Source of the DNA: an uncultured virus (IMG/VR IMGVR_UViG_651053001_000005)
Lineage: Duplodnaviria > Heunggongvirae > Uroviricota > Caudoviricetes
DNA: 64,000 bases
IMG/VR virus record: IMGVR_UViG_651053001_000005
Location: 1 to 64,000 of that record
Strand: one strand, 5' to 3'
Part shown: one piece after another, positions 3,015 through 62,997 of the stretch
How positions within the stretch are numbered: the first letter of the stretch is position 1
How the letters are laid out: each line of letters starts with the position of its first letter
Notes under the pieces: generated by a model
The model's input: the letters and a program-made list of their open reading frames with translations, nothing else
Database searches by the model: none
Told to the model about the DNA's origin: nothing
Translations under genes and position numbers: made by a program

Positions 3015-3054
3015 ATTATATTATTCTCCTTCAGTATAAAATTAGAATTTCATT

Positions 3055-3885
3055 TCATTTGATTTCAAATGTCTTCAGTTCAAACGTTTTATACGTATCA
3101 ACTTGCTTACCTGGTATCTCATTTACTCTAGGATACATATCATAGTCATATGGATATCCAATGCAGTTCATGTGAAAGCTCGTTCCTTCTTTATAAAACT
3201 CAGCTTGTAAATGATCGTGTCCACAAACCCAATGTTCAGCATTAATAAATGGCAAATCGACCATATAGCAGCTGTTAGGCTCAAACGGAGAATAAGGATT
3301 GTGAACAGGTGGGACATGAGATACAAATACATCAATATCAGAGTTTTCAAGAGTGTCATACCAGTCCATTGATTCTTTCCACATTGCTCGTACCCCATCT
3401 TCTTTGCTGTATCCATTAAGGCTGATATAGTTTGAATCATTAGAGACACCTTTGAAGAAATCCCATCCTTCATTTCCTTTTGGAAGATACCACATAACAT
3501 CTCCTGCAAAGACTTTCCCTTTGTATGTATCCGTAGACTTTATTAATGGAGTGACATTATTGATGTCTGTAGCCTTCTGAATTAAATCATTCACCCTTCC
3601 CAGTGAATCGGAATATTTTCGTTGCTGATTTTTACTGAGTAAATAAAGATCATGATTACCATATGTGAAGTAAACCTTTTCATACTGCTTTGCTACTTCA
3701 TCAAGTACCCACAGTGTCTGTTGATTCCACTCAGTAAAGTCACCGGCAATGATTAATACCTCACCATTTCCATTCGATATTAACCTTCTAACAATCTCCC
3801 TTGTTCGCTTTTCCCACTTGATTTGGTTATTGTTCCAAGGGATCCAGTGATTAATATGCAGATCTGAAACATAATCAATTTTCAT
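3055..3885 (-). CDS. yotB: calcineurin-like metallophosphoesterase
   Basis: SDLH, AGD, GNHD, SHVPP, GHDH motifs. Confidence 0.9.
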
Positions 3886-3919
3886 TTTATCCCCCTTCTT
3901 TGTTTAAGTACGTGTTAAC

Positions 3920-3943
3920 TCATGCTCCATGACCAATTGACAT
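3920..3943 (-). CDS. 7-codon mini-ORF MSIGHGA, arbitrium-like peptide
   Basis: GAGGTGA-tttaa-ATG TCA ATT GGT CAT GGA GCA TGA in the yotB/sspC intergenic region. Confidence 0.7.
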
Positions 3944-3971
3944 TTAAATCACCTCACTTCAAATTTAATGT

Positions 3972-4000
3972 GTATATTTTCAAAACATCTCCACACAATA
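3972..4000 (+). promoter_or_regulatory. sigma-G-like promoter of sspC
   Basis: GTATA-N17-CACAATA upstream of a SASP gene. Confidence 0.45.
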
Positions 4001-4044
4001 CAATTGTACAAACTTGTTTACATACTACTTTAGGAGATGATCAT

Positions 4045-4257
4045 ATGGCTAAACAAAACAGATCAAACAACAGCAATGAATTACTTGTGCCTCAAGCTGC
4101 TGGTGCTCTTGAACAAATGAAGTATGAAATTGCTTCTGAGTTCGGTGTGAACTTAGGGCCTGAGACAACAAGTAGAGCAAACGGATCAGTAGGTGGAGAG
4201 ATCACAAAACGTTTAGTACGTTTAGCTCAACAAAGTATGAATGGCCAATTTCATTAA
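4045..4257 (+). CDS. sspC: alpha/beta-type small acid-soluble spore protein
   Basis: [13 protein letters not shown] and [16 protein letters not shown] signatures; AGGAG RBS. Confidence 0.97.
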
Positions 4258-4263
4258 TGTATG

Positions 4264-4286
4264 AGGGGTTAATCCCCTCTATTTTT
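4264..4286. terminator. intrinsic terminator between convergent genes
   Basis: GAGGGG-ttaat-CCCCTC hairpin plus T tract. Confidence 0.7.
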
Positions 4287-41075: not shown

Positions 41076-41116
41076 TTGCTTCTCCTTTATCGACGATATT
41101 TTTTAGAATACCTCAT

Positions 41117-41144
41117 AAAAGAAGAGCCGCTTAAATAGCAACTC
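41117..41144 (-). terminator. intrinsic terminator closing the mini-ORF unit
   Basis: GAGUUGCU-auuua-AGCGGCUC-UUCUUUU. Confidence 0.7.
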
Positions 41145-41159
41145 AAAATGTTTATCTTA

Positions 41160-41183
41160 TTAGCCTCCCACTCTAACTCCCAT
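41160..41183 (-). CDS. mini-ORF MGVRVGG
   Basis: GGAGG-N7-ATG GGA GTT AGA GTG GGA GGC TAA TAA. Confidence 0.55.
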   Translation of the reverse strand: MGVRVGG

Positions 41184-41186
41184 GAC

Positions 41187-41213
41187 TCAGCCTCCAATAG
41201 AATTGATGGACAT
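41187..41213 (-). CDS. mini-ORF MSINSIGG
   Basis: TGgTATAAT (41237-41245), AAGGAG-N7-ATG TCC ATC AAT TCT ATT GGA GGC TGA. Confidence 0.6.
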   Translation of the reverse strand: MSINSIGG

Positions 41214-41266
41214 AATACCACTCCTTTATTAATTCAATTATACCATTTACAAAGGAGTTTGAATAA

Positions 41267-43425: not shown

Positions 43426-44243
43426 GTTGTCAAACCCTTCCCTTCTACATTTTCATTGAGAAACCCTGACAGAGTGTCAATGAAATTATAAAAGACCTCA
43501 TTTCTTGTGCCTGACCGTCCTTTTAGAGAAAAGGTGTTAAACATTGATTTTCGCAGTCCAGTGCTTAACTCAAGTTGAATGCTCTTTCCTGTTTTATTTT
43601 TATTCGCAACATTGTTCGGACTGCTGCCAGATAACCTTGTCCCCTCATCAAGAAGCTCTGCAGAGTAGCCGGCATTATTTAATGTGATTGTTATCGCTTC
43701 AGCTTTGTTCCGATCTGTGCCGCCAACTAAAACATGTTGATCATTGCTTGCGTAGCCGTGAAGTGACAGTGTGAACTCATGCTCCTTCAACATTTCAAGT
43801 GCTTGAGGTTCATCGAAATTTGTACTGGTTAAATGTAAATCAAATGCTCCTGGTGTCTTTAAAGCTTCAAAAAGATATGTAGAGTATGTTTCGCTTAATT
43901 CCTTTGCAAGCTCGCTTGTTCCCCCTTCTATACCACCTCCATGGGGAGCAAGAATTAATACATCAGAGTCTTGCTCTTTTGAAAATACGCTAAAATTGAA
44001 CGGTGATTCATTCGCTTTAAGCTCTTCAAAGTTCCGATACTTGTCCGCTGCTAAAATACTCACTGGATTCAGGAATGAGACCAGAGCTGTCACCAAGAAT
44101 GGAAAAGTCTTCTTAACTATGTTATACTTTAATAGCTTCACTTCGCGGTGAGGTGGGCAGATTAGAGTGTACCGTCCAAAGTCTCTCTTCTCTGCTCCTT
44201 TAGTCTTTTTTAGCAATTCCACTATTCTGTTTTTAATCTTCAA
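43422..44243 (-). CDS. pghZ: poly-gamma-glutamate hydrolase (PghP family)
   Basis: APHGGGIE.GTSE, H.TS..FDEP, SLHG, QLE. Confidence 0.92.
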   Translation of the reverse strand: MKIKNRIVELLKKTKGAEKRDFGRYTLICPPHREVKLLKYNIVKKTFPFLVTALVSFLNPVSILAADKYRNFEELKANESPFNFSVFSKEQDSDVLILAPHGGGIEGGTSELAKELSETYSTYLFEALKTPGAFDLHLTSTNFDEPQALEMLKEHEFTLSLHGYASNDQHVLVGGTDRNKAEAITITLNNAGYSAELLDEGTRLSGSSPNNVANKNKTGKSIQLELSTGLRKSMFNTFSLKGRSGTRNEVFYNFIDTLSGFLNENVEGKGLTT

Positions 44244-44347
44244 TTAAATAAACACTCCTTTTATTTTTATAAACTTCAGATAGCTGAAATAAATTACATC
44301 TCAATCACCTCCTTTTAAGTTAAAAATCACTTTTGACGCACGCAATC

Positions 44348-44584
44348 TCAAAATTTTGATTTAAATTTATTGCATACTACACCATAGTATTTAAAATATT
44401 GCTGATGATTAGCTTTTTCCAATAAAGTTATGAACTCATCTCCATGTTGTTTTCTCGCTGAGGAATGTCTTAGGTCGACAATGTTTATTTCTTGTGCTTT
44501 TACACTATGAATAAACTGTTTTACTTGATTAATCAATCTTTTGGGAACTGTTCCGTCTTCAATCATCAATTCAAGCTCTATCAA
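44348..44584 (-). CDS. hypothetical protein
   Basis: ORF track; possible ATA start at 44605. Confidence 0.55.
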   Translation of the reverse strand: MIELELMIEDGTVPKRLINQVKQFIHSVKAQEINIVDLRHSSARKQHGDEFITLLEKANHQQYFKYYGVVCNKFKSKF

Positions 44585-44640
44585 AGTACGATTTGTTCTA
44601 TCTATATTGCTTCACTCCATTCCTCTATAAAATATCGTTT

Positions 44641-44913
44641 TTATTCAGTTTCTTTTCTTACCCATTTTCTAACCTTAACTTCCTTAAGCTCAACTTCAAA
44701 ACACTCAACCTGGTCATCGTATTCCCACGGTCTCTCCTCTTGTAACTCTGTAGCGCCTTCCCTGTAAGTTGTCTCATAAAACTTGTCTTGATATGCAAAC
44801 ACAATACGATAATGAATACTCCACCTAGACGTATCAGTGATTTCTTCTAAAATTGAGGATTCAGGTAGCCCCAATTCATTTACCATGTAATCTTTGTCCA
44901 ATTTAATTTTCAT
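44641..44913 (-). CDS. conserved phage hypothetical protein
   Basis: RWS...G.TE.QE..P pattern. Confidence 0.7.
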   Translation of the reverse strand: MKIKLDKDYMVNELGLPESSILEEITDTSRWSIHYRIVFAYQDKFYETTYREGATELQEERPWEYDDQVECFEVELKEVKVRKWVRKETE

Positions 44914-45793
44914 TCAAAATAACCCCTCTTCCTTTGCAGCATTCACATTCGACTAAAGGCTCGTTGATTTTAGCCATCAGATCATCTAAAAATTTCTTAA
45001 TATTACTCTTCAAATCCTCAACGTCCTTACCACTAAAAGGCTCTACAATTGGGTAGCTCTGATAGGCTTTAGGTGCAACATTGTAAATTTCAACTTCCCG
45101 CTTTGTTTGAAATCTTTTCTCAAGTTTAGGCTTTCTTCGTTTGTACATTGCATTAAGATCAACTACATACTCGTGAGGTTTGTAAAGCTCCAAAACTTTG
45201 ACCACAGTTAAACAGAAATCATAATCACTCGTGATTCTTGCCAATTTAGGGTTAATATTGGCTTTAATATGGTTTCTGATAATCTTATAACTTTCTTCTC
45301 GGGACAAGTAACACGGCTTTGTTTCAAGAAGCATTGGATGAGTTTGAATCCTATCCAGTAAGTTATAATTCAAGTTAAAATTATGGCTTTGCAACTTAAG
45401 TTCTCCGTCAATTTCTTCAATTACATTCATTTCAAACTCAATTTTTTGATTCTCTTGCGGGACTTCTTCAAATTTTAAATCATATAGACCCTTCACTTCA
45501 TAGTATTCACTGTCTTCACCTATGTAAGAAGTTTTAATTACTTGTGGCGTCAAATCAGTTTCCTGGAATCCCTCTTTTAATTCATACCTATAATTGATTT
45601 TTTTAGCCGGCATTTGTTTTTCAATAACACTTGGCTCCTTATCAAGCTTAAACCAGTCTGATTTATACGTTTGGGTTGCTCGTTTCCCATCGAAAAACAA
45701 TTCATCTAATTGACTATGAAAATATTTATTTCCTTCAATATTGTCAGACACCAAAAAACAGTTACTTGTTTTAATACCAATTAGCTTCATCAA
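44903..45793 (-). CDS. hypothetical protein with C-terminal CxxCxGxG
   Basis: ORF track. Confidence 0.75.
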   Translation of the reverse strand: MMKLIGIKTSNCFLVSDNIEGNKYFHSQLDELFFDGKRATQTYKSDWFKLDKEPSVIEKQMPAKKINYRYELKEGFQETDLTPQVIKTSYIGEDSEYYEVKGLYDLKFEEVPQENQKIEFEMNVIEEIDGELKLQSHNFNLNYNLLDRIQTHPMLLETKPCYLSREESYKIIRNHIKANINPKLARITSDYDFCLTVVKVLELYKPHEYVVDLNAMYKRRKPKLEKRFQTKREVEIYNVAPKAYQSYPIVEPFSGKDVEDLKSNIKKFLDDLMAKINEPLVECECCKGRGVILNEN

Positions 45794-45838
45794 ATTTCCC
45801 CTTTTTAATTTTATTTTTATCCTTATAAAATCTCTGTT

Positions 45839-46318
45839 TTATTTAGATTCGAAAAGCTCAGTATCTTCGTAAATATTACCGATTACTTCATAACTGATGA
45901 CAGTCGGGTCTGATTCGCTTTTTAACCAACTCAAAGCATTCATCTCACAATCAATCCAAGGCCTTAAATCAAATGCTGGATAGTTTTCGCTATCCAAGAA
46001 TTTAACTTCTCCAACGTAATAAGGTTCTTCAGCCCATGTGGTGTCGAAAGTAATCCGAATTATATCCCCTTCATAAATCTCCTTGCCGTTATTGTCCTTC
46101 AATCCGGTGTATTGTCGAACCGCTTTCAAACTTTTATCAGCAAACGAATATTCATCACCGTCTTTATCTGTAACGTAATCTATTTTTCCGTTATCAAAAG
46201 AAATGTCATGAACATCAATAATTTCTTCGTAACTGTCTATACCTGCCCAATGCATATTAGAACCCAAATTGCTTAATGCATGTTTAACTACCAACGCCTG
46301 AAATTTAATATCTCTCAT
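45839..46318 (-). CDS. YopX-family protein
   Basis: MRDIKF, QYTGLKD.NGKEIYEGDI, EVIGNIYE. Confidence 0.9.
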   Translation of the reverse strand: MRDIKFQALVVKHALSNLGSNMHWAGIDSYEEIIDVHDISFDNGKIDYVTDKDGDEYSFADKSLKAVRQYTGLKDNNGKEIYEGDIIRITFDTTWAEEPYYVGEVKFLDSENYPAFDLRPWIDCEMNALSWLKSESDPTVISYEVIGNIYEDTELFESK

Positions 46319-46333
46319 TCTCTCCACCTCCTG

Positions 46334-46633
46334 TTATTGTCTCCGCTCAAAACCGATATTAACGTTTGCTTGTTTAGGTCTGATAACTTCAACTGTGCTA
46401 CCTCTGTCAGACAGCCTACTTTTTAATTCCTTCATATCCTTGTATGGCGCTATTTGCAAGGTGCTCAGATCGATAAGAATAACTTCATGTTTATCTTTAG
46501 CGGCATACTCTCTGTCTAGTGTTCTAACAATGTATACATCAGCATCATCTATTTTAATGAAGTACCCGTCCTCTAAATCTTTCACCTTTGGCTTATCTGC
46601 TTTGTTCTTTCTAATCTTTAAATTGATCGCCAT
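46334..46633 (-). CDS. hypothetical protein, near-identical paralog of 20457..20762
   Basis: Direct sequence comparison. Confidence 0.8.
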
Positions 46634-46856
46634 TATTCTCACATCCACTTATTTTATTTTTATCAAATAAATCGATTATGTAGGCTTCGTACATCTCATC
46701 CCAATAAGGATCTGTTCTTGCTATGTATTTCTTTGCTTTTCCATTCTCCTCAATTTTAAAGGTTTGCCCCTTTTGGATATCCGTGAACTTCTCCTTTGTC
46801 CATATACCTCTAATCAACACTTCAACTTCTTTTACCTCAACTGTTTGCCGCTGCAT
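46611..46856 (-). CDS. hypothetical protein ([11 protein letters not shown]...)
   Basis: AAGGAGG RBS. Confidence 0.65.
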
Positions 46857-46917
46857 CACATTCCTCCTTTTTGATTTTCGTGTATCAAGCCTGTACAATA
46901 TTCAAAAACCCTAAAGG

Positions 46918-47601
46918 ATGATGAACATGTGCGGCAGGTTCACTTTATTCTCTGAGTTTGACGACATTATCGAACAGTTCAATATAGATCAATTTTTGTC
47001 TGAAAACGAATACCATCCAAGCTATAACGTTGCTCCTTCACAAAACATCCTGACAATCATTAATGATGGATCAAACAACCGTATGGGTAAGCTTAGATGG
47101 GGTCTTATCCCTCCTTGGGCCAAAGATGAAAAGATCGGCTATAAAATGATCAATGCTCGAGCTGAGACATTGGCCGAGAAACCCAGCTTTCGAAAGCCAC
47201 TCGTAAGCAAACGTTGTATCATCCCAGCTGACAGTTTTTATGAATGGAAGCGTCTTGACCCAAAGACTAAGGTTCCTATGAGGATTAAACTTAAATCATC
47301 CAACCTCTTTGCATTTGCCGGCTTATATGAAAAGTGGAATACGCCAGAAGGCAATCCGCTATATACCTGCACAATCATTACTACAAAACCCAATGAGTTG
47401 ATGGAGGACATCCATGATCGGATGCCGGTCATTCTCACTGACAAGAACGAAAAGGAATGGCTAAACCCCAAAAACACCGATCCTGATTATCTTCAAAGCT
47501 TACTGCTTCCGTATGATGCTAATGACATGGAAGCTTATCAAGTTTCATCCTTAGTTAACTCGCCTAAAAACAACTCACCGGAACTGATTGAATCCCATTA
47601 A
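46918..47601 (+). CDS. yoqW: SRAP/HMCES abasic-site protecting protein (MCGRF start at 46927)
   Basis: MCGRF, YN.AP, WGL.P.W, NAR.ET, FYEW, IHDRMP. Confidence 0.95.
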   Translation: MMNMCGRFTLFSEFDDIIEQFNIDQFLSENEYHPSYNVAPSQNILTIINDGSNNRMGKLRWGLIPPWAKDEKIGYKMINARAETLAEKPSFRKPLVSKRCIIPADSFYEWKRLDPKTKVPMRIKLKSSNLFAFAGLYEKWNTPEGNPLYTCTIITTKPNELMEDIHDRMPVILTDKNEKEWLNPKNTDPDYLQSLLLPYDANDMEAYQVSSLVNSPKNNSPELIESH

Positions 47602-47670
47602 GTACCACAGTCATTTTGCTTTATATATCACCTTCGCTTAGCTATTATGTTCTAAGTAGGAGGTGATATT

Positions 47671-48483
47671 TTGTTTGTATCGCCAATGTTATTGCATTCA
47701 ATCAAAGAACCATTTGATGACGATGATTATATTACCGAGCTGAAGTTTGATGGAATTAGACTGATCCTCTCCAAGTTTAATGATCAGATAAAGCTTTATA
47801 CTCGTCACAACAATGAAGTAACAAGCAAGTTCCCAGAACTGTTGGATCTTGATATACCCAATGGAACTGTTTTAGACGGTGAAATCATTGTAGCTACCCC
47901 AGGCGGTGCCCCTGATTTCGAAGCAGTCATGGAACGCTTTATGTCTAAGAAATCAGCTCATAAGGTGGTTTACTGTGTATTCGATGTAGTTTATATTGAT
48001 GGACATTCAATCGCTAATAAGCCGCTCACTGAACGTAAGAGCATGCTTTCAGACCTAAACCTTGACCACGATAATGTCTTTGTGATCGAAGGCCTGCAAG
48101 GAAACGGATTAGCTTACTTCAATCTGGCCAAAGAAAAGAATTTAGAGGGAATCGTACTAAAGAAAGCTAACTCCCCTTATGAAATCAATAAACGTTCCCA
48201 TAGCTGGCTGAAAGTGATTAATTATGATTACACAGATGTGCTTATCACTGGCTACACCAAAGAGGATATAAAGTTTCTTCTGTCTTATCCTGATGGTACA
48301 ACAGCTGGATTTATGGAATTCATGCCGAATGCGGAACGAAGTAAGTTCCACTCTATGAAACAAGTAAAGTCTGAATCTGATGAATATGTATTTGTAGAAC
48401 CGATCTTATGTAAGGTTAAACACAGATTTAAGACTAAGCATGGCAAACTCCGTATACCTTCCTTTGAATCCTGGAGAGTCTAA
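47671..48483 (+). CDS. ligB: ATP-dependent DNA ligase
   Basis: ELKFDGIR, LDGE, FD, EGIVLK, WLK. Confidence 0.95.
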   Translation: MFVSPMLLHSIKEPFDDDDYITELKFDGIRLILSKFNDQIKLYTRHNNEVTSKFPELLDLDIPNGTVLDGEIIVATPGGAPDFEAVMERFMSKKSAHKVVYCVFDVVYIDGHSIANKPLTERKSMLSDLNLDHDNVFVIEGLQGNGLAYFNLAKEKNLEGIVLKKANSPYEINKRSHSWLKVINYDYTDVLITGYTKEDIKFLLSYPDGTTAGFMEFMPNAERSKFHSMKQVKSESDEYVFVEPILCKVKHRFKTKHGKLRIPSFESWRV

Positions 48484-48700
48484 CCTCTCCGTTACATAAT
48501 TCCTTAATGTCTCTTTCTTAACAAAATTCAAAATCTATTACATTAACACTTTAAGTTAGTTCTATTCCATCTCAATCCACTTATAATATTTCCCTATATG
48601 ACAATCAAAGCGCCAACCATCCTCAATGACTTTCGTATGACTATTCTTATATTTCGAGTGATTTAATAACACCCTAGGAGAAAACATTATTCTCTGCCAA

Positions 48701-48898
48701 TTAAATAATTCTTTCATTTTTCATACCCCTTTCCTTGTGAATTTTCACTTTTGATAACAATGTTATCTTTACAGTTCGTTCAATTAAATATTCTGCATTG
48801 CAGTAATCGCATTTTACTCTAAATTCAAGAGATGGCTCATAAACAATGGTTTCTCCACAAATCTCACAAGGAAAAACATCTTCATTGATTCTCCCCAT
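48701..48898 (-). CDS. small zinc-ribbon protein
   Basis: CEIC / CDYC. Confidence 0.6.
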   Translation of the reverse strand: MGRINEDVFPCEICGETIVYEPSLEFRVKCDYCNAEYLIERTVKITLLSKVKIHKERGMKNERII

Positions 48899-48992
48899 AA
48901 ATAAATCACATCCTTTAAAATAACTATTTTATTTTGATCCCATAATAATCACCAAATATTTTAGCCCACAAAATCATTTAGAATATTCTCAT

Positions 48993-49196
48993 TCATTCTC
49001 CTCCATCTCCATATCCGCTATGAGAACTACTTCCGAATAACCCGAGGGAAACGACTAATGCTGTTATAAACGACGACAATATAAGGGGAAGCAAAAATAC
49101 TGCCAAGCCGGTATAGTTAGACTCAAACGTTATAAGCTGTGTGATCGAATATGCGAAAAAGAAAACATACAATCCATATATAATCCAAAACCGCAT
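48993..49196 (-). CDS. small two-TM membrane protein
   Basis: Hydrophobicity. Confidence 0.6.
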   Translation of the reverse strand: MRFWIIYGLYVFFFAYSITQLITFESNYTGLAVFLLPLILSSFITALVVSLGLFGSSSHSGYGDGGE

Positions 49197-49418
49197 TTAT
49201 TCACTCTCCAATCGTTTTAATGCTTCACTGTTTTCGCCAATAGTTTCGTTAATCAATAATCTGCGAGCTTTCTTTATCGTAGTTATTTGGAATGTGCAAT
49301 CGTCTCTTCCATACATCTCACAGGTAACAACATAATCTCTAAATAGATCGTTCATATACTCCATGTCACCACAACCATATAGTTTGCCGTTTAGAAAGCA
49401 CGCATATATTTGCGCCAT
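49197..49418 (-). CDS. hypothetical protein
   Basis: ORF track, GGAGG RBS. Confidence 0.7.
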   Translation of the reverse strand: MAQIYACFLNGKLYGCGDMEYMNDLFRDYVVTCEMYGRDDCTFQITTIKKARRLLINETIGENSEALKRLESE

Positions 49419-49607
49419 TGACTTTCCTCCATATCACCTATGGCTATCACCGCCATTTGATTGTGTTTCTGTCATTTATTCCATCTCAATTTTTTTGAAT
49501 TCTTTTTTGATTTTTCTATTGCTTTTCACTCTTTTATTAATAGAGGCGTTGTCTTACCCATGCCATCTAAAAGAGAAAGGACATTTTTGTCTCGGAGGTG
49601 AAAGGTA

Positions 49608-49760
49608 ATGAAATTTCTAATGGATCTTTTCACAAATTGGACTTTTGATAAAGTCATGGATTACATGCTAGCTGCTGTAATTTGGTTTGTATTCAAGTCC
49701 AAATCAAAGCAGAATGAGTATCCTGATAACTTTAAGGAAAGAAGGCGTTATAGAGATTGA
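49608..49760 (+). CDS. 50-aa peptide (YoqT-like) MKFLMDLFTNWTFDKVMDYMLAAVIWFVF...
   Basis: GGAGGTGA RBS; hand-translated. Confidence 0.7.
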   Translation: MKFLMDLFTNWTFDKVMDYMLAAVIWFVFKSKSKQNEYPDNFKERRRYRD

Positions 49761-49812
49761 TATTCTCTCTATGATCGTTATCTATATGGTTACTGCTTTA
49801 GATAGCGATCTT

Positions 49813-50175
49813 CTAGTGGTTTAATTTAAATTCAACACCCAAAAAGTCACATAGCTCTTCCTTAAAATCCGGTTCTCCAAATGTTCCATTCAACAATCTG
49901 TGTTCTAAAACATTGAGAGTAACCTCTTCAGGTTCCCACTGATCTTCTAAACCGTGGCATGAACAGTGGGAACCATTAACCTCGAACAATTTCCCTCTCT
50001 CTTCAAATAGAACCCATGCGTGCCCTTCACAAATGTCACCATCATAAGAGGCAAACAGAATGTTTACATCAGTTTCTTTTTCTTCAAAGTCTGACAAAAC
50101 GTCAACCTTTTCTTTTCCTTCCCAATCGTTCAGAAGTACTGATTTTTGCTTAATGATTTCTTCAAATTTTTTCAT
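49813..50175 (-). CDS. conserved phage protein with HCSC motif
   Basis: FEVNGSHCSCHGLEDQWEPE. Confidence 0.7.
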   Translation of the reverse strand: MKKFEEIIKQKSVLLNDWEGKEKVDVLSDFEEKETDVNILFASYDGDICEGHAWVLFEERGKLFEVNGSHCSCHGLEDQWEPEEVTLNVLEHRLLNGTFGEPDFKEELCDFLGVEFKLNH

Positions 50176-50217
50176 TGTCCCTAACTCCCCCATTTCATTT
50201 TAAAAACTATCTTTTAT

Positions 50218-50469
50218 TTAGACCTTCTCATAAGTCTGATGAAATATGTCAGGTTTACAAGGATAAAACTCACCTTGGACTCCTTTAATAACAAAATCAT
50301 TAGGCGAAACGATCATACTGCCTTCTAAAGTTTGTATATGACGCATTGTTGTAAGTAAATCATGCCAGATACCAACTACATCACCGCAGAATTCCCGTAA
50401 TTCATCATAAGAATCTTGTGATCCGTCATATTGGATAGCATCAACTTCAACTGGTTTTTTATATTTCAC
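50218..50469 (-). CDS. PGDYG-like phage protein
   Basis: KKPV.V.A.Q, TLEG.M, GEFYPCKPDIF..TYE. Confidence 0.8.
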   Translation of the reverse strand: MKYKKPVEVDAIQYDGSQDSYDELREFCGDVVGIWHDLLTTMRHIQTLEGSMIVSPNDFVIKGVQGEFYPCKPDIFHQTYEKV

Positions 50470-50512
50470 TTCCCACCTCTTCCTTTAAAATCACGAGTTT
50501 ATTTAGATTTAG

Positions 50513-50728
50513 TTATGTAATTTCATTTAAGTTTTCGTATTTAGTAAGCTCATCAATCACTCTTTCCATTTCAGCTATAGACATTTCTTTGAAATTTGGT
50601 GCATATCCTAAGACCTTAGCTAAAAACCAACGCTTTTCTTTCAGGCTATTAAAACCTAATCGTTTAAATTCTTTGGATAATTTTCTTCTCAGCACAGGGA
50701 AATAACCTAGTGTAGTGTATACGATCAC
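50513..50728 (-). CDS. hypothetical protein
   Basis: ORF track, AGGAGG RBS. Confidence 0.65.
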   Translation of the reverse strand: MIVYTTLGYFPVLRRKLSKEFKRLGFNSLKEKRWFLAKVLGYAPNFKEMSIAEMERVIDELTKYENLNEIT

Positions 50729-50845
50729 TTAATTTTACCTCCTGAAAAATCTGTTATTTTAATTTAACTTTAATGTGGATCACCTTGAGAAAATCCCCTT
50801 TAATTGGTAAACTCATACCTAACTTACATACGAGTGGGTGATTCC

Positions 50846-51220
50846 TTGAATAAAACAATCGGTATTACTGGATTAATCATCAGCATAGTAGTGCAATCAT
50901 TTTCGGCCGATGATTCGTTATCCCACAGGATTGCTACGGGTTTGTTATTTGTATCAATCATCATTTATAATTTTGAACACGCTAAAGATTATTCTAAAAA
51001 GTCACTTGTGATTTTAGGTGTTTCCTTTATCGTTTTTATGCTAGGGATTTATAAACTCCTCTCTTTTACCAGCGATTACTTTGAAAAGCTTAATGTGAAT
51101 TTTGGATACATCCTCTTATTTGAAATAGCACTGATTATTGTATTAGTGTCGATTGCAGTAAACGTAATGAAGTACATTGCGAACCGGTTAAGGAAAACAC
51201 CTGATGGTAAAGAGCTTTGA
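50846..51220 (+). CDS. yoqO: four-TM membrane protein
   Basis: Hydrophobic; plus-strand position as in SPbeta. Confidence 0.7.
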   Translation: MNKTIGITGLIISIVVQSFSADDSLSHRIATGLLFVSIIIYNFEHAKDYSKKSLVILGVSFIVFMLGIYKLLSFTSDYFEKLNVNFGYILLFEIALIIVLVSIAVNVMKYIANRLRKTPDGKEL

Positions 51221-51233
51221 CTCTTTGCCTTTT

Positions 51234-51464
51234 TTAAGCTAAATACTTCTTCTTATGTGGTCTTCTATGTACAAAATCAAATGCTATATCAACCTTTACC
51301 GGTTCCTTCTTCTCTGCTACTCGTTCCGTAACAACAATCAGTTGTCCATTTTCCTGGCGTTCAATGCTATGGACTGAATATCCTTTACCAGCGTAATATT
51401 CACCAATAATCTCATCAACGTGGTTGCTAAGCAGATTCCTCTTTATCACCCTTATAACCTCCAT
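51234..51464 (-). CDS. hypothetical protein
   Basis: ORF track. Confidence 0.65.
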   Translation of the reverse strand: MEVIRVIKRNLLSNHVDEIIGEYYAGKGYSVHSIERQENGQLIVVTERVAEKKEPVKVDIAFDFVHRRPHKKKYLA

Positions 51465-51603
51465 TTATTTTATTTTTACTCTTTAAATATTTATATGTAT
51501 TCCATCCGCAGCCATCAAATATGCTTATATCCGCTCCAAGATGCCATTTAAACCAAACTAAGTTAAACCAGACTGTATCAATTATGTATTTGATGTATCC
51601 TAT
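51427..51603 (-). CDS. 58-aa hypothetical protein with ATA start
   Basis: Open frame (I/M)GYIKYIIDTVWFNLVWFKWH...EESA filling the gap. Confidence 0.45.
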   Translation of the reverse strand: MGYIKYIIDTVWFNLVWFKWHLGADISIFDGCGWNTYKYLKSKNKINGGYKGDKEESA

Positions 51604-51788
51604 GCTAACGACACCCTTTCAACTAACTTATCTTTATCAATATCTTTCTTAAGCATATCCTCAATTTCCTCCAATTTATTAACCACTTCAAATGTAAATT
51701 CATCATCATTTGTATAGCGAATCTGATCACTTGCTTTCTTTACAAGCTCAAGTGCAACTTGTCTTGGGTCTTTATAATTTTCACTCAA
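51600..51788 (-). CDS. hypothetical protein
   Basis: ORF track. Confidence 0.65.
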   Translation of the reverse strand: MSENYKDPRQVALELVKKASDQIRYTNDDEFTFEVVNKLEEIEDMLKKDIDKDKLVERVSLA

Positions 51789-51819
51789 ACTCCCACCTCA
51801 TTTCATTGAAATAATCCTT

Positions 51820-52212
51820 TTACACAAATATTAATGTAGGCTCCTTGTCCTCTTCATATCGTTCGTATCCAATAAAATAATGATCGTAGTCCTTTTGAAT
51901 ATATGATGAAATCCAGTCGATGAATTTTTCAATCTCATCATCGTAGTTTTTTAAATTACATCTAATACTTACATAACAACCACCAACAACAGCGTCATTT
52001 TCAATTTTGCTATGGGTTTTCCCATCGAAATAATAACTATCTGATTGAAGCATCCATTTCCATCTAGTATCTTCAGAAAACAGATTATGTTCTGGCAACT
52101 CACTTGGATGTTCATCTCTTTGACCAGTCATAAACTCTAAAATTTCAATTATTGATCTTGGTGTTTCCTCAATAAGCTTAAAAGCACAAACCAATTCAGT
52201 ATACATTCCCAT
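51820..52212 (-). CDS. conserved phage hypothetical protein
   Basis: MGMYTE..., LKNYD.EIE.F.DWI, G..RYEE. Confidence 0.75.
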   Translation of the reverse strand: MGMYTELVCAFKLIEETPRSIIEILEFMTGQRDEHPSELPEHNLFSEDTRWKWMLQSDSYYFDGKTHSKIENDAVVGGCYVSIRCNLKNYDDEIEKFIDWISSYIQKDYDHYFIGYERYEEDKEPTLIFV

Positions 52213-52244
52213 TAATATATCTCCCTCTCTTTAAAACAGTCTTT

Positions 52245-52439
52245 TTATTGAAAATATTTATCTGATGTGCGGGCCATGTCTTCCCCGCCTAAATAGTTTT
52301 TTATTTCATTTAAGCTATAAATGACCTTATCGAATTTATCCCTAATGTGCAGTGCATATTCAACTGATGAATCAGACATCCCTAATTCCTTTAGATTTGT
52401 GTCTAATTCTTTAAAGTAGCCTTGTAACTTTACGTTCAC
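52245..52439 (-). CDS. hypothetical protein
   Basis: ORF track. Confidence 0.6.
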   Translation of the reverse strand: MNVKLQGYFKELDTNLKELGMSDSSVEYALHIRDKFDKVIYSLNEIKNYLGGEDMARTSDKYFQ

Positions 52440-52487
52440 TAAAAACTCTCCTTTTTTATTGAATTCTTTTCTTATTAAACTTCAATT

Positions 52488-52751
52488 TTATTTTGATTTA
52501 ATCTCAACAATTAGACTGTCAGGATAGTTCTTCAAATCAAGTGCGTTTACATGACAGTGACCTACATATCCTTCTTTATCAACGTAATTATAATAAAACT
52601 TTTCCCCATTATTAATGATAACTTCACCCTGATGTGTATACTCCATCTCTGATCCCTTGTACCATGTTACTTTAACTTTTGTGCCAGGTATGATTTTATT
52701 TAAATCAAATATTGTTATTTCTTTTAGCAAAATCATTTCCTCCATTTCCAT
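52488..52751 (-). CDS. hypothetical protein
   Basis: ORF track; start uncertain. Confidence 0.6.
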   Translation of the reverse strand: MEMEEMILLKEITIFDLNKIIPGTKVKVTWYKGSEMEYTHQGEVIINNGEKFYYNYVDKEGYVGHCHVNALDLKNYPDSLIVEIKSK

Positions 52752-52777
52752 TTTCCACTCTCTATAAAATTTTACTT

Positions 52778-53128
52778 TTATCCAAACTGCTTTCTCCAAG
52801 GGACGTTGCCCACAACACTGTGATCAAGCATTTCTTCGCAACTTTTACACAGGGTTGATTTTGTTATTGTCATATGGAAGGAGTCCCACTTACCACAACA
52901 GTGACACGTATTCTCAAATGCTGCTGATTCCTTCTGTTTTTTTCTTTCAGAGCCGTTGCCAGTTAACAATAGGCCGTTACTATAAAGGTCGTTCTGTCTT
53001 ACTTCTGCTTCTACACTCCATGGGTATATTCGCTTCTTTAAGTGCCTTTGCACTAACGACTCGCTTCGGCTATTTCCAATCTTCATGAACTCTCTATTTG
53101 CAGTAAGGTCAACTGTTCTTTTCATCAC
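52778..53128 (-). CDS. Cys-rich hypothetical protein
   Basis: CHCC..CKSC. Confidence 0.7.
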   Translation of the reverse strand: MMKRTVDLTANREFMKIGNSRSESLVQRHLKKRIYPWSVEAEVRQNDLYSNGLLLTGNGSERKKQKESAAFENTCHCCGKWDSFHMTITKSTLCKSCEEMLDHSVVGNVPWRKQFG

Positions 53129-53856
53129 TTCGGCCTTTTGAACAGCTTTTTAAACCAATTTTCTTTTTCATTAACCATTACAAATCCGGGATTATTCATC
53201 CTAAACCCATTTCCTGTCTTGTCCATGTTGTTTAACTGCTTCTTCAATTGCTCAATATCTTGGGGTGTATTGATGGTCATTGCAATATTTGATTCTTTTA
53301 CTTCCTGCACTTTGGAAATCATCTTATCTAAAGTGAGATCACATTACTCATCTTCGCAGTCGCCTATGAAATAAAAACGTTCAATTAAAGTACCACTCGA
53401 CTCATCTTGAAAAGTGCCGAATAAAATTGGATCCTTATCTCTCCGTTCTTTTTTGATCTGCCTTTCAACCTTCCCCGTATAATCTGTAAACACCACATAA
53501 AACCGATCCAATTTGTCTTTCACTTTGTTGTATTTAATGATTACATCATCAGGGATTTCACGTTCGTAATTTTCAAGCTCAATAATTTTGACAGTATCTT
53601 TTGCAATGTTATCTATGTATTCTTCAATGTCATATCGATAAACAAACGTATCAATGCCAAGCTTTACAATCTCGCGTTCTTTTTCAATTGATTCTAAGTG
53701 GAATATCAGTTTCTTTGCAGCTTTAATTTGATTAGTTTGCTTATACTTATTGAGTAACCAGCAATTGTCGTAATATCTTTGAAGTTCTTTGTCTGTAACC
53801 TTATTTTTCTTTGATTTAATCATGTCAAAATATTGATTTGGTTGTAAAACTTCCAT
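53125..53856 (-). pseudogene. gene split by an in-frame TAA at 53344-53346
   Basis: ...GDCEDE*CDLTLDKMISKVQ... is one continuous frame. Confidence 0.65.
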
Positions 53857-53872
53857 CTTTTCACTCCTTTAC

Positions 53873-54109
53873 TTAATCTAATTCCCTCATGTCCTCCCGC
53901 TGCTCAATATAACTTTTAAAGTCCTCCCATTCCCTATCGATTTCTTTAATATTCCTAGCAATATAGCTTTCTGCAATGTCTGGATCAACCAACTTTTGAA
54001 GAGACAGCTGATACATAAATTCAATCTTTGACACTGTTTCTAGAAATGACTGGGCATAACTTTTTGCTCTATTTAAGCGATATTGACTCATTCCATGTTT
54101 TGATTCCAT
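53873..54109 (-). CDS. hypothetical protein
   Basis: ORF track, AAGGAG RBS. Confidence 0.65.
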   Translation of the reverse strand: MESKHGMSQYRLNRAKSYAQSFLETVSKIEFMYQLSLQKLVDPDIAESYIARNIKEIDREWEDFKSYIEQREDMRELD

Positions 54110-54149
54110 TATTATTCTCACTCCTTTTAATCACATTAAAATGCATCTT

Positions 54150-54668
54150 TTATTTAGTTCCATTGGTGATTTCTTTTTCTAATAACGTTTGCACTCTCTT
54201 AATCTCTTCAATGGAATGTACAGTACCTCCGGTGTTTAATTCAATATACCATTGAAGAACATCTGCTTTAGTTGGGAGATCATTAATGACAAACTCCAAA
54301 CTGATTAAATTGCTCAAAGTGTCTTCAAACTGATTGTAAAAGTGATCAAATGCTTTGATTTCATTGTTTAGGAACCTCAAACATGCCGTTATCCTTTGTA
54401 AACCATCCACACATACAAAGTCTCCTTGAAAATCCCTCATCCATCCTTTTTGGTTAAGGAAAATGGGATTTGTTTTACCTCCTTTTAAAAGATGTTCTAC
54501 AAATTTAATTTGCTGCTCTTCAGTCCATACATGCCCTCTTTGAAAATCAGGGTTAAGTTGTAGACCTTCCTCAATATATCTTTCAATTGCACTTTTAAAA
54601 TGCCTTAATGAGTGATGAACTCTATAACTGCCGTCTTTTGTGTATGGCACTATATCTTTGAACTTCAT
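54150..54668 (-). CDS. stand-alone DUF262 (ParB/Srx-fold, GmrS-like) protein
   Basis: P.FQRG.VW, VDGLQR, LN.GG. Confidence 0.85.
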   Translation of the reverse strand: MKFKDIVPYTKDGSYRVHHSLRHFKSAIERYIEEGLQLNPDFQRGHVWTEEQQIKFVEHLLKGGKTNPIFLNQKGWMRDFQGDFVCVDGLQRITACLRFLNNEIKAFDHFYNQFEDTLSNLISLEFVINDLPTKADVLQWYIELNTGGTVHSIEEIKRVQTLLEKEITNGTK

Positions 54669-54835
54669 TCCACGTCCTCCTTCTTTTCACCGACCCGATC
54701 AATGAAAATATGTTCGTAATCTTCATGTGCTTCATCATAATGACCGAGGATGAACCTTACACACTCTGCGTTGTCTCCCGACTGAAAAACGGTTTCATTA
54801 TTTCTTTCATCATAAACACGATATTTTTCACTCAT
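54665..54835 (-). CDS. 56-aa acidic protein MSEKYRVYDE...
   Basis: ATGA coupling at both ends. Confidence 0.65.
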   Translation of the reverse strand: MSEKYRVYDERNNETVFQSGDNAECVRFILGHYDEAHEDYEHIFIDRVGEKKEDVE

Positions 54836-55236
54836 TCCGCACCCTCCAATAACTCAGGATTTTCAAAAACGTTTCCGACAACCTCAATTTCATCAAGTCG
54901 ATACCATAAGAATCTATCCAATTGGCCCTTTTTGCTGACATGGTTCATTCTGTCGATACCTTTCCGTCTCTCAATAACATAACGGTCAACAACATTTTCT
55001 TTGAGTAAAGGATTCATATACGATTCCTCAGTAATATCCTTTTGGTATATATCCTTCCCTTTCTTGTCCTGTAGCCCTGTTCCCCACATGAGAACAGCGC
55101 AAGCTGTTTTATTGCTCGTGATGAATTTTCCTTTGCGGTATAAATACCAATTTCCATCTTCAATATTCAGGCTTATCCCCTCGTCATCCCAATGATGCAT
55201 TTTCTCGCCGTCCCACACTCTGTGCGCTGTGTTCAT
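54832..55236 (-). CDS. yopX: YopX-family protein
   Basis: RVWD, TGL.DK.GKDIY..DI, EVVGNVFENPELL. Confidence 0.9.
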   Translation of the reverse strand: MNTAHRVWDGEKMHHWDDEGISLNIEDGNWYLYRKGKFITSNKTACAVLMWGTGLQDKKGKDIYQKDITEESYMNPLLKENVVDRYVIERRKGIDRMNHVSKKGQLDRFLWYRLDEIEVVGNVFENPELLEGAE

Positions 55237-55514
55237 AATTTCCGTGCCTCCTTTGGGTTTTCGTCACACATTTCTTTTAGTGCCTCCACAAATTCTTTTT
55301 CACACATATTCAACGGCGTATACCACTTTATCACTTCATGAAACGGATGGAGATAATTTACCAATGTATCTTCAGCATCTTCCTTTCCTTTTGTTGTCCC
55401 AGTGAAATTATTCAAATAGTCTTCACGCGTCATATTTATGTGCGTCGGACAGTCAACCACTGAACTAAATCGGCAGTACCGTCCATTCGGCTGCTTAGCG
55501 ATTAATGCGCCCAT
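55233..55514 (-). CDS. conserved phage hypothetical protein
   Basis: QPNG.YCRFSSVVDCPTH.NMT. Confidence 0.75.
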   Translation of the reverse strand: MGALIAKQPNGRYCRFSSVVDCPTHINMTREDYLNNFTGTTKGKEDAEDTLVNYLHPFHEVIKWYTPLNMCEKEFVEALKEMCDENPKEARKL

Positions 55515-55546
55515 GTTATTCCCCCTTATCTTAATCTCTATAAAAC

Positions 55547-55771
55547 TTACATTTTATTTTTATTCTTAAAATAACCGTGCTGATTTACAACATCTCCAAG
55601 TATGTATTGTATTTCCTCTAAATTGTCTTTAACGAAATCTAGATCTCCAATTGCCATTCTGATTTCATTATTCTCTATGCTGCGTAAAGACCTTTCACAT
55701 GATACTAAGAGCTTTGTATATTTCCTTAAAACCATAGTTCTTATTTGATCGTTAATTGGTTCATTAATCAA
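55547..55771 (-). CDS. hypothetical protein
   Basis: ORF track; first gene after the SPBRE promoter. Confidence 0.65.
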   Translation of the reverse strand: MINEPINDQIRTMVLRKYTKLLVSCERSLRSIENNEIRMAIGDLDFVKDNLEEIQYILGDVVNQHGYFKNKNKM

Positions 55772-55806
55772 TAATTAAAGCTATCTCCTTTCCTGATTCT
55801 AATTTG

Positions 55807-55860
55807 ATTATATAACCTCAACCATATGTTGTAAATACTTATTTTATTTTTACTCTAAAT
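55807..55860 (-). promoter_or_regulatory. sigma-A promoter with SPBRE-like element
   Basis: TTTACA-N17-TATAAT preceded by TTTAGAGTAAAAATAAAATA. Confidence 0.8.
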
Positions 55861-55879
55861 AATTTTAAAAAGATCAGCT

Positions 55880-56125
55880 TTACTCATACTGTAAAGCTGC
55901 TGTCTTCATAAACGTCTTCATGCCGTCCAGTTTCCAAAGAGTTTCATTTATTTTATCTCTAAATTCTAAAACTGAAGCATGATCCATTCTAATCCTCAAA
56001 CAATCCCCATTGTTTTTAAAGATAATGTCTATGTAGTACTCTCCACTTTGTATGTTCTTAGAACCAACACTCATGGAAACTGATCTCATAATGTCTTTCA
56101 AGTCAATTTCAAGATTAAAATCCAT
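55880..56125 (-). CDS. hypothetical protein
   Basis: ORF track. Confidence 0.65.
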   Translation of the reverse strand: MDFNLEIDLKDIMRSVSMSVGSKNIQSGEYYIDIIFKNNGDCLRIRMDHASVLEFRDKINETLWKLDGMKTFMKTAALQYE

Positions 56126-56199
56126 TGTATGCTCCAGTCTGACTAAAAAGTCACCAATTTTTTATGTCTCATGATGACTGGCAAGATGTGTATGTGAGT

Positions 56200-56499: not shown

Positions 56500-56528
56500 A
56501 CGTTTCCCTCTCTCTGGTAGCAATTAAC

Positions 56529-56586: not shown

Positions 56587-56663
56587 ATCTTTTTTCTTTC
56601 ATTTAAAAACTTGGAAAGAATTGATATAGTATGATAAGCAATACTATAACAGGAGGTTGTCCG

Positions 56664-60595: not shown

Positions 60596-60604
60596 AATGA
60601 CACC

Positions 60605-61696: not shown

Positions 61697-61828
61697 TTAA
61701 GCTCCCCGAATTGCACTTGCTACAGAGATCTCATCAGAAGCTGATGCCGTATTAACTGAATGTTGACCTGCAATGAATGAAATTGCTAATGCTGCTAAAA
61801 TGGCTGTACCGAAAATAATTTTCTTCAT
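61697..61828 (-). CDS. aimP: arbitrium pre-pro-peptide, mature SAIRGA
   Basis: MKKIIFGTAILAALAISFIAGQHSVNTASASDEISVASAIRGA; AAGGAGGTGA RBS. Confidence 0.97.
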   Translation of the reverse strand: MKKIIFGTAILAALAISFIAGQHSVNTASASDEISVASAIRGA

Positions 61829-61857: not shown

Positions 61858-62997
61858 CTAAATTAAATTTAGTAGCTCCGGATCACAGCCTAATTTTTCG
61901 AGTTCTATTATAGTCAATTGGATAAAATATTTATCATCTGATTTTTTGAAATATGTTATTGATTTATAAAAATCAGATTTTTGTTTTGATATCAAACCTT
62001 TATAATAAAAATAAAATCCTAATTCATTTTCATCTTGATCCCTATTTGATAAGCTTTCCAATAATTCGTTAGCCTTGTCGAGATTATTATTTTTTATGTA
62101 ATAAAAAGCCCTAAGCTGCTGATATTTGATATCATCTGATTCATAGTTAACCCATGGATTTTCCTTGTTCCATACGTTAGCTAGGAAGCAAAGAGCGCCG
62201 TTTAGCATTTCTTTATGGGTATCATTAAGAACATACTTCTTTGCCTCAATATACGCCAGCATAGCTTCTTCATAGTTTTCGAAAATTAGGGTATTTCCTA
62301 TAGTCAGATGCGCAAAAAAACATATTCGGTTCACATTGGACTGCATTATTGCAATATTTGAATGTTTCCTCGCTTCGATTAAATTGTTTTCATTTAAGCT
62401 TATATTCGCTTGTAACATTGACACTCTACTTTTGTACGAATCTTTTATAAATCCTTCTGGCAAGCTGCTAAAATCTAAAAGTGTTAAGGTGCTTTTCATC
62501 AATCCAAACTCACCAATATTCAAGTATTTATACATCAGCATTGCATCTGAGAAAAATGACATTTCTGGGGCTTTGCATCTTCCGCACTCTCTTATTGCTT
62601 CTGGTATTGAGATTTCGTTTTTATAAAGCTTTCTATGTATGCTGTAGATGTTGCCCCATTCTTGACTTGTGGTGTTTTTTGAGTTGCTTAAATTTAAAAT
62701 AATCTTGTCTGTTAACGTATCCCATTGATTAATATCTGAGTATTCAACAGACTGTCTTGCGCTTTTTTTATTGGGATCCAGTGATAAGAAGTAATCACTT
62801 AGAAGCTGCTCTTCATTATCAGGAAACAAGCTTTTAACAATATTAATTAAACCGCCTAAGTTGTCCATTTCTTTCTCTGGGGTGTTGATGAATTTGTAAA
62901 AACCATTAACCTTTTCGTACCCTGCTATTTTTGAGAGTTTCGCTGCGAGCTGGTTGTCTTTTTCACATTCATTCTTAATCATCTGCTTAAGATTCAT
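61858..62997 (-). CDS. aimR: arbitrium receptor (HTH-TPR, RRNPP family)
   Basis: phi3T-AimR-like sequence (IKNECEKDNQLAA...GYEKVNGFYKF); upstream of aimP. Confidence 0.95.
   Translation of the reverse strand: MNLKQMIKNECEKDNQLAAKLSKIAGYEKVNGFYKFINTPEKEMDNLGGLINIVKSLFPDNEEQLLSDYFLSLDPNKKSARQSVEYSDINQWDTLTDKIILNLSNSKNTTSQEWGNIYSIHRKLYKNEISIPEAIRECGRCKAPEMSFFSDAMLMYKYLNIGEFGLMKSTLTLLDFSSLPEGFIKDSYKSRVSMLQANISLNENNLIEARKHSNIAIMQSNVNRICFFAHLTIGNTLIFENYEEAMLAYIEAKKYVLNDTHKEMLNGALCFLANVWNKENPWVNYESDDIKYQQLRAFYYIKNNNLDKANELLESLSNRDQDENELGFYFYYKGLISKQKSDFYKSITYFKKSDDKYFIQLTIIELEKLGCDPELLNLI

Follow-up and report, generated by a model that had tools for sequence, protein, structure and literature searches.

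The mini-ORF described here lies in the intergenic region between a yotB-like gene and sspC. It was found in the window, that is, the whole stretch of 64,000 nucleotides that was analysed, which corresponds to positions 1 to 64,000 of a provirus record 87 kb long. The following features are referred to below:

3055..3885, minus strand: yotB-like metallophosphoesterase of 276 aa, here the next cistron downstream of the mini-ORF (PF00149, Metallophos, E 2.6e-18)
3920..3943, minus strand: mini-ORF of seven codons, M-SIGHGA-stop, with the ATG at 3943 and the TGA at 3922..3920 (read from the sequence)
3949..3955, minus strand: Shine-Dalgarno (SD) sequence GAGGTGA, 5 nt ahead of the mini-ORF ATG (read from the sequence)
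3956..4022, minus strand: conserved leader block 5′ of the mini-ORF (by-eye alignment of anchored segments)
4036..4257, plus strand: sspC, small acid-soluble spore protein, divergent from the mini-ORF (from the sequence and relatives)
4263..4279, plus strand: terminator-like hairpin that follows sspC and has its T-run on the plus strand only
61697..61828, minus strand: aimP of the phage itself, encoding a pre-pro-peptide of 43 aa with SAIRGA at its C-terminus (read from the sequence)
61858..62997, minus strand: AimR receptor gene, the sole one in the phage (PF22871, E 6e-100)

The reverse complement of window positions 3920..3955 reads GAGGTGA-TTTAA-ATG TCA ATT GGT CAT GGA GCA TGA, exactly as the first-pass annotation had described it. 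The mini-ORF is placed 34 nt upstream of the yotB-like ATG (3885), and the gene for the 276-aa Metallophos protein shares about 73% DNA identity with SPbeta yotB. According to the by-eye alignment, the leader block at 3956..4022 is common to Goe14- and phi3T-type phages. Leftward transcripts could pass through the hairpin at 4263..4279, as its T-run is found on the plus strand only. It had also been claimed that the initiation region of the mini-ORF nearly copies that of the phage's own aimP, whose start is preceded by GGAGGTGA-ATTTA-ATG. The likeness in sequence is real, but it carries little weight because the shared element is a canonical, generic Bacillus SD.

In the arbitrium system, AimP leaves the cell as a secreted pro-peptide, is cleaved outside and is taken up again to bind cytoplasmic AimR, with the effect that aimX is switched off and lysogeny is favoured (PMC13220667, accessible text). 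Unlike aimP, the mini-ORF is not located beside aimR, the only AimR gene being the one at 61858..62997, and its seven codons come without the precursor of about 40–60 aa, the hydrophobic signal sequence or the pro-region of aimP.

Short ORFs preceded by an SD also arise by chance. The 87-kb provirus contains 341 seven-codon ORFs, 19 of which have an SD core and 3 of which have both an ATG and an SD core, and the mere presence of a short SD-ORF was therefore rejected as evidence. The mini-ORF stands out from chance because it is conserved and because its peptide is identical to real AimPs, and for no other reason. In window-type leaders, its frame is shut by a stop directly upstream, so that the open frame is limited to the seven codons. 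In Goe11-type leaders (L072, L076, L089), the frame is open upstream for 36 codons and includes an upstream ATG that falls inside the sspC promoter block and has no SD. A 34-aa product from these leaders is formally possible, and the open frame is probably incidental there. Six annotated phage regions were inspected, and in all four carriers among them the annotation lists no gene at the position of the mini-ORF. In another part of the window, a 190-bp intergenic gap (41076-41266, minus strand) harbors two adjacent short ORFs with SD cores, MSINSIGG and MGVRVGG, with ATGs at 41213 and 41183. Both peptides end in GG, and both are absent from the clade-2 peptide table of PMC13220667 in its accessible form.

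The mini-ORF encodes three peptide variants among its carriers, and SIGHGA, TIGRGG and TIGRG are each the C-terminus of genuine AimPs encoded beside AimR in other prophages. The suggestion of the first-pass annotation that SIGHGA is an arbitrium-type signal was thus borne out by real aimP genes as well as by the accessible part of a published catalogue. The sister variants MTIGRGG and MTIGRG, which that annotation did not include, match real AimPs too. We identified the precursors by scanning the viral collection with back-translated C-termini followed by a stop codon. The scan for TIGRGG-stop (40 loci) yielded four 47-aa precursors with a hydrophobic N-terminus and the ending ...KVATIGRGG (L097, L101, L114, L115), and in 4/4 cases an AimR gene is located about 30 nt ahead. 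The scan for SIGHGA-stop yielded two precursors of the form ...QVASIGHGA (L135, L138) when serine was specified as AGY, and both directly follow AimR. With serine specified as TCN, the same scan resulted in 31 loci, namely 11 mini-ORFs and 20 chance or out-of-frame matches, and no precursor. The SIGHGA-stop matches in L061, L063, L066 and L083 were discarded, as they fall within a larger gene that is read in a different frame. The scan for A-TIGRG-stop resulted in 61 loci, of which the 11 with a GC content below 0.42 were inspected; these included at least five precursors ending in ...FKVATIGRG (L158, L159, L162, L187, L190), with AimR adjacent in 3/3 records searched. The AimRs beside SIGHGA-, TIGRGG- and TIGRG-type AimPs match the Pfam AimR family PF22871.

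The catalogue of Gallego-del-Sol et al. (Cell 2026, PMC13220667), as far as its Tables S1 and S2 are accessible, comprises 281 clade-2 AimRs and 26 proposed mature peptides. SIGHGA is assigned to 9/281, TIGRGG to 5 and ATIGRG to 3 (written as TIGRG in one sheet), and the hosts of these systems are B. subtilis, B. velezensis and B. amyloliquefaciens. We compared the mini-ORF peptides with the 26 catalogued signals by eye. Since all three variants equal 3 of just 26 signals, the peptide match is not a coincidence. SIGHGA also fits the mature pattern of clade 2, in which position 5 is G and position 6 is A or G. All precursors have the residues VA directly ahead of the mature part, and the mini-ORF starts exactly at this cleavage boundary. 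At the level of DNA, the SIGHGA aimP and the mini-ORF differ at 8/21 bases, all of them synonymous and including AGC versus TCA for Ser, and the downstream and flanking DNA of the two is unrelated. Thus, there is no recent DNA copy and the match exists at the peptide level. A scan for leaderless elements of the form SD-ATG-xxxRGA-stop, with a GGTGA SD required 4–8 nt upstream, resulted in 36 loci that were all chance-like, and the leaderless strategy therefore seems to be confined to this peptide family and this locus.

The provirus has a single arbitrium receptor of its own. When the whole provirus was searched with a SIGHGA-type AimR as the query, no second AimR was detected, and only the known AimR was found at 36% identity. 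AimR was located in 26/31 records, and the own AimP of each carrier was read as the ORF behind it. Seven own signals were found among the carriers, namely SAIRGA, SIIRGA, SPSRGA, SASRGA, GFTVGA, GMPRGA and GIVRGA, and across these seven types no link between the mini-ORF and the own signal of its carrier was detected. The observation that SIGHGA differs from the cognate SAIRGA, made in the window, proved to be general, as the peptide of the mini-ORF differs from the own signal in 16/16 carriers with a readable AimP. Two carriers of the mini-ORF have interrupted AimR genes: SPbetaL5 (L004/L035/L039) with two TAA codons, and G021 (L059) with one TGA and one TAA. Judging from these interruptions, SPbetaL5 and G021 may have lost their own arbitrium sensing and kept the mimic.

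To assess the occurrence of the mini-ORF, we used the SD/promoter block of sspC as a sampling anchor, which is blind to the mini-ORF itself, and took all matches in the IMG/VR viral collection (25 loci). The mini-ORF was present in 13/25 SPβ-like IMG/VR proviruses in this anchor sample. When the window and six phage isolates, hand-chosen from 24 records, were added to the 25 anchored proviruses, it was found in 17/32 records. Goe11 and BUCT082 are carriers that exist as isolated phages. These 17 copies are divided into 12 MSIGHGA, 2 MTIGRG, 2 MTIGRGG and 1 MTIGRGDELKPT, the last of which appears, from its sequence, to be an MTIGRGG-type copy that has lost one base. Loosening the anchor by one base added one genome match and four metagenome matches, with MSIGHGA in 2/5, and a peptide-pattern scan uncovered two more copies (L077, L087). 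An SD with the same spacing is kept in 19/21 copies, the exceptions being L031 and L087. Decay is visible in 3/21 copies: L023 carries a frameshift, the SD of L031 is weakened, and the SD spacing of L087 is reduced by 3 nt.

The mini-ORF is absent from 18/39 anchored records, among which are SPbeta and phi3T. SPbeta-type leaders lack the mini-ORF. So do phi3T-type leaders, which retain the SD and continue into different DNA, and Goe14-type leaders, in which this SD belongs to an annotated gene of 76 aa. The 76-aa gene of Goe14 (L002 2268-2498) also occurs in L021 and L027, and the L021 copy is apparently broken by a deletion. In phi3T (L001 2380-2500, minus strand), an unrelated insert of about 165 nt occupies the site of the mini-ORF before yotC, and it holds tiny ORFs such as ATG GGT TTT TAA. 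The gene 3′ of the mini-ORF varies by carrier and is either the yotB-like gene or a gene for a protein of 110, 193 or 70 aa. The mini-ORF therefore moves with its leader and not with a particular downstream gene.

Comparison of the copies within each peptide class showed a variety of codons. In the MSIGHGA class, Ser is encoded by TCA, TCG or TCT and Gly by GGT or GGC, and the stop is TGA or TAA; the T classes vary in ATT/ATC, GGT/GGA, GGA/GGC and the stop codons TAA/TGA. At least eight within-class substitutions can be deduced from these alignments, and 8/8 are silent or exchange one stop for another, with start, peptide and stop kept. The expectation for random single-base changes is that 18–20 out of 72 (about 27%) preserve start, peptide and stop, which results in a p-value of about 3e-5 for 8/8. 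The first-pass annotation had tied its reading to a conserved SD, start and stop with synonymous change only, and this is the pattern across SPbeta-like genomes within each peptide class. Comparison of the two MSIGHGA lineages that diverge most deeply gave 21/24 identical positions (88%) in the ORF, but 64% identity in the upstream leader and 54–58% over the 60 nt downstream. These results indicate that purifying selection acts on the peptide encoded by the mini-ORF. The comparison of the window with SPbetaL5, which represent the S and the T class in a similar background, resulted in 71% identity for the ORF versus 86% for the upstream region, and the change between the classes thus falls mainly on the peptide. 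For 40 nt on either side of the ORF the window does not differ from L032, yet the 24 nt of the ORF itself show two silent differences (TCA/TCG and TGA/TAA), an oddly local clustering of change.

We then considered the leader RNA and its transcription. No sigma-A-like promoter was called on the minus strand near the mini-ORF, and promoter-like sites are present on the plus strand only. The fold of the leader RNA has a z-score of +1.55, with 191/200 shuffles folding at least as well; no match to Rfam was obtained at E<=1, and no attenuator-like structure was found in the leader. A structured RNA or a known RNA family was ruled out by the shuffle comparison and the lack of an Rfam match. Together with the conservation at the peptide level, this speaks against either a DNA operator or a structured RNA being the conserved object. 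SPbeta has a transcript of about 5 kb that is induced by mitomycin and extends on the same strand from yosX through yotBCD to sprB; the yosX promoter is repressor-controlled, and no further sigma-A promoter is predicted up to sprB (PMC4191935, accessible part). Because no sigma-A promoter was called on the minus strand of the window, the timing of the mini-ORF is an analogy with SPbeta, which itself does not contain it. By this analogy, production during the lytic development of the carrier is most likely, since the strand is transcribed in SPbeta from the yosX promoter after DNA damage. RNA-library contigs from 4/4 studies cover 3036..4203 or more and are identical across the mini-ORF; these contigs carry no strand or end information and could reflect DNA carry-over, so that their support for expression is weak.

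Next, we characterized the elements that use the matching signals and are therefore the presumed targets. The SIGHGA-type and TIGRGG-type AimRs are 40% identical, the TIGRG-type and TIGRGG-type AimRs 63%, and the target-type AimRs are only about 35% identical to the AimR of the window. The target elements encode a serine integrase 4–5 kb from aimR-aimP in addition to portal, terminase and tail genes. On the basis of this gene content, they look like a different kind of prophage from the carriers. Two TIGRG-type records of 32–35 kb are rated 77–81% complete. Neither the DNA of window 44001-64000 nor the DNA polymerase of the window matched any of 5 target records, a weak comparison as all of these records are fragments. 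In the phage-isolate collection, the SIGHGA locus gave three short matches and the TIGRGG locus none, and none were usable; the sequenced isolates of this collection thus lack these modules.

The targets are uncommon, with 17/281 catalogued AimRs, compared with the common mini-ORF, found in 13/25 proviruses. A target-type AimP was found alongside the mini-ORF in 1/15 carrier assemblies in the viral collection (L011 with L115, taken as the same assembly because they share a record-number prefix). In this case the mini-ORF encodes MTIGRG and the arbitrium module TIGRGG, which are one residue apart. For Bacillus amyloliquefaciens 2785, the accessible Table S1 of PMC13220667 lists two arbitrium systems, one with SIGHGA and one with TIGRGG, and the presumed SIGHGA and TIGRGG targets can thus share a cell.

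Our preferred interpretation, to which we assign a probability of roughly 60%, is that translation of the mini-ORF in the cytoplasm yields a forgery of the arbitrium signal of a rival phage, which would inactivate the AimR of that rival. We observed the sequence itself, its conservation, selection on the peptide, the exact match to three natural AimP signals and the lack of a cognate receptor in the carrier; we infer translation, Met removal, AimR binding, timing and a fitness effect of the mini-ORF. The mini-ORF would be translated and its initiator Met removed, resulting in mature SIGHGA, or in TIGRGG or TIGRG in the sister phages. Methionine aminopeptidase tolerates Ser or Thr as the second residue, and removal of formyl-Met in front of them is assumed on the basis of this specificity. 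Several points weigh against the forgery: very short ORFs can translate poorly, free hexapeptides are open to peptidases, the presumed targets are uncommon compared with the mini-ORF, some of its copies are decayed, many relatives lack it, and no promoter was called for it on its strand. The forged peptides would correspond to the signals of a different temperate Bacillus phage lineage and not to that of the carrier. Synthesis in the cytoplasm would bypass secretion, extracellular cleavage and import by Opp, and the forged peptide would already be where AimR acts because it is made there directly. SIGHGA would then fill the AimR of a rival that resides in the same cell or is just entering it, so that the aimX of the rival would be off and the rival would lean towards entering lysogeny or staying dormant. 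The forgery would be made mostly when the carrier goes lytic, keeping rivals down in the same cell.

In line with the last steps of this scheme, non-cognate AimPs can repress the AimR of other phages, which results in more lysogeny and less induction of these phages and in a gain for the emitter (PMC13220667, accessible text). Manley et al. likewise describe repression of AimR across phages with increased lysogeny and lower induction of the rival and a gain for the emitter, as far as the accessible text of the preprint goes (bioRxiv 10.1101/2025.10.13.681967). The first-pass annotation had read the mini-ORF as a gene for an already mature, foreign arbitrium peptide that could jam the AimR of a competitor from inside the cell, and our analysis supports this interpretation overall.

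Two other explanations also assume a translated and selected peptide but place its action elsewhere. In a close variant of the forgery, the peptide could be made in the cytoplasm, freed at lysis and imported via Opp by neighbouring cells, where it would drive rivals into premature lysogeny. The identity and selection evidence applies to such a broadcast in the same way as to an intracellular forgery. Since the strand is induced in the lytic phase of SPbeta (PMC4191935, accessible part), the peptide would build up just before lysis, and phages residing in other cells are indeed manipulated by cross-talk through secreted peptides (bioRxiv 10.1101/2025.10.13.681967, accessible text). However, a signal sequence would make such a release earlier and more efficient, and the carrier's own aimP already works in this way, which makes release at lysis unlikely in our judgment. 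Alternatively, the peptide could serve as an internal timer by acting on the AimR of its own carrier, or it could address a host receptor of the RRNPP type or host physiology. A 2026 preprint, in its accessible part, reports that B. subtilis itself responds to SAIRGA, and some AimRs accept non-cognate peptides (PMC13220667, accessible text). Yet the exact identity to three foreign signals would be left unexplained by a host target, and a role tuned to the receptor of the carrier is doubtful because the same peptide occurs in phages with seven own signals. We thus consider a target of this kind distinctly improbable.

Two further explanations do without a function of the peptide as a signal. 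The mini-ORF could be a functionless relic, either of an aimP from which an internal in-frame deletion removed the signal and the pro-region, or of a recombination event that captured it at a module junction. Its patchy distribution, with absence from 18 of the 39 anchored records, and the degradation of 3 of its 21 copies would agree with this, as would the fact that homology with phi3T- and Goe14-type phages stops right at the ATG, which places the mini-ORF at a recombination boundary. A relic does not account for within-class substitutions that are silent in 8 of 8 cases, nor for an ORF that is far better conserved than its flanks. Moreover, each of the three variants equals another real signal, which would take three specific non-synonymous changes and the loss of one codon; DNA similarity to aimP is nil beyond what the peptide demands, and no remnant of aimR is present near the mini-ORF. 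We regard a relic as no less improbable than a target in the host or in the carrier. Ruled out by the conservation with silent-only change was a remnant of the 5′ end of a neighbouring gene.

The mini-ORF could also be a generic 5′ element, that is, an mRNA stabiliser composed of an SD and a short ORF, or a regulatory upstream ORF (uORF), with a coincidental likeness to arbitrium. It sits in an operon leader, strong 5′-proximal SDs stabilise Bacillus mRNAs, and the SD of the mini-ORF initiates an ordinary gene of 76 aa in Goe14-type phages. A stabiliser, however, needs no particular peptide, and the mini-ORF combines its strong SD with a peptide under purifying selection, which a role of this type leaves unexplained. 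The mini-ORF also lacks the hallmarks of a leader peptide or uORF, as the downstream genes vary and provide no constant partner, the leader folds no better than its shuffles, and neither an attenuator-like structure nor an Rfam family was recognized. A coincidence of all three variants with catalogued signals is not credible, given the 26 signals in the accessible tables, and we consider the generic element very improbable indeed.

If the mini-ORF is a forgery as proposed, its implications reach beyond this locus. We consider it slightly favoured that SPbeta-like phages own a dedicated signal-forgery gene, which would supply a ready-to-use pheromone made on the ribosome without export, processing or import, would make the receptor of the rival signal a lack of hosts in any cell that the forger occupies, would thereby keep the rival dormant and would be retargeted by point mutation in an arms race. 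Only single-base changes or one codon separate the SIGHGA, TIGRGG and TIGRG mini-ORFs, and the three variants would then record such an arms race, with the forger being redirected by point mutation. No other quorum-type peptide pheromone is known to be made ready for use on the ribosome, so that this one would be the first, and its production would skip the whole cycle of secretion, processing and import. Arbitrium is the textbook example of communication among viruses. Phage–phage arbitrium interference has so far been shown only via secreted peptides of chance similarity; a separate leaderless gene with the exact signal of a competitor would amount to deliberate deception between viruses. 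The boundaries of the mini-ORF would in addition mark the mature ends of AimPs independently, e.g. the 5-mer TIGRG and not ATIGRG. For practical use, the mini-ORF would offer a natural tool to switch chosen AimRs off inside the cell, and it would illustrate that functional seven-codon genes escape annotation.

While the AimR receptor–ligand pair is known, the leaderless second gene that encodes the exact signal of a competitor is new. In the literature outside subscription-only papers and bioRxiv supplements, a search for decoy, mimic or leaderless arbitrium genes returned no description of such a gene, and neither SIGHGA nor TIGRGG occurred in the main text of the searchable literature. The accessible text of PMC13220667 and of bioRxiv 10.1101/2025.10.13.681967 does not mention a leaderless mimic gene.

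Among known systems, clade-2 AimP is closest to the mini-ORF, as the mature product is the same (SIGHGA, TIGRGG or TIGRG). It differs in its precursor of 41–47 aa with a signal and pro-region, compared with seven codons without either, and in adjoining aimR, whereas the mini-ORF is located 58 kb from the only aimR. Clade-2 arbitrium further includes aimX, and no aimX-type gene was identified beside the mini-ORF, where yotB-like or other genes are found. Finally, the codons of the mini-ORF differ from those of real aimP genes, and its peptide is foreign to the receptor type of the carrier. In secreted AimP cross-talk, a peptide of one phage likewise acts on the AimR of another; the agent described in the accessible texts is the emitter's own secreted and merely similar AimP, whereas the mini-ORF is a second, dedicated and leaderless gene for an exact copy (PMC13220667; bioRxiv 10.1101/2025.10.13.681967). 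Unlike the secreted AimPs, the mini-ORF peptide presumably acts without export.

The inhibitors of the iCF10/iAD1 type in Enterococcus are plasmid-encoded short peptides that compete at an intracellular receptor of the RRNPP type, and the mini-ORF resembles them in that a mobile element encodes a short competitor peptide for such a receptor. The iCF10/iAD1 peptides are secreted, processed from precursors and antagonise the response to a host pheromone, whereas the peptide of the mini-ORF is unprocessed and would be an agonist copy of the signal of a competitor. The bar minigenes of lambda are very short translated phage ORFs that cause peptidyl-tRNA drop-off regardless of the meaning of the peptide. 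The mini-ORF shares with them the character of a very short phage ORF missed by gene callers, but in the mini-ORF it is the peptide sequence itself that is conserved.
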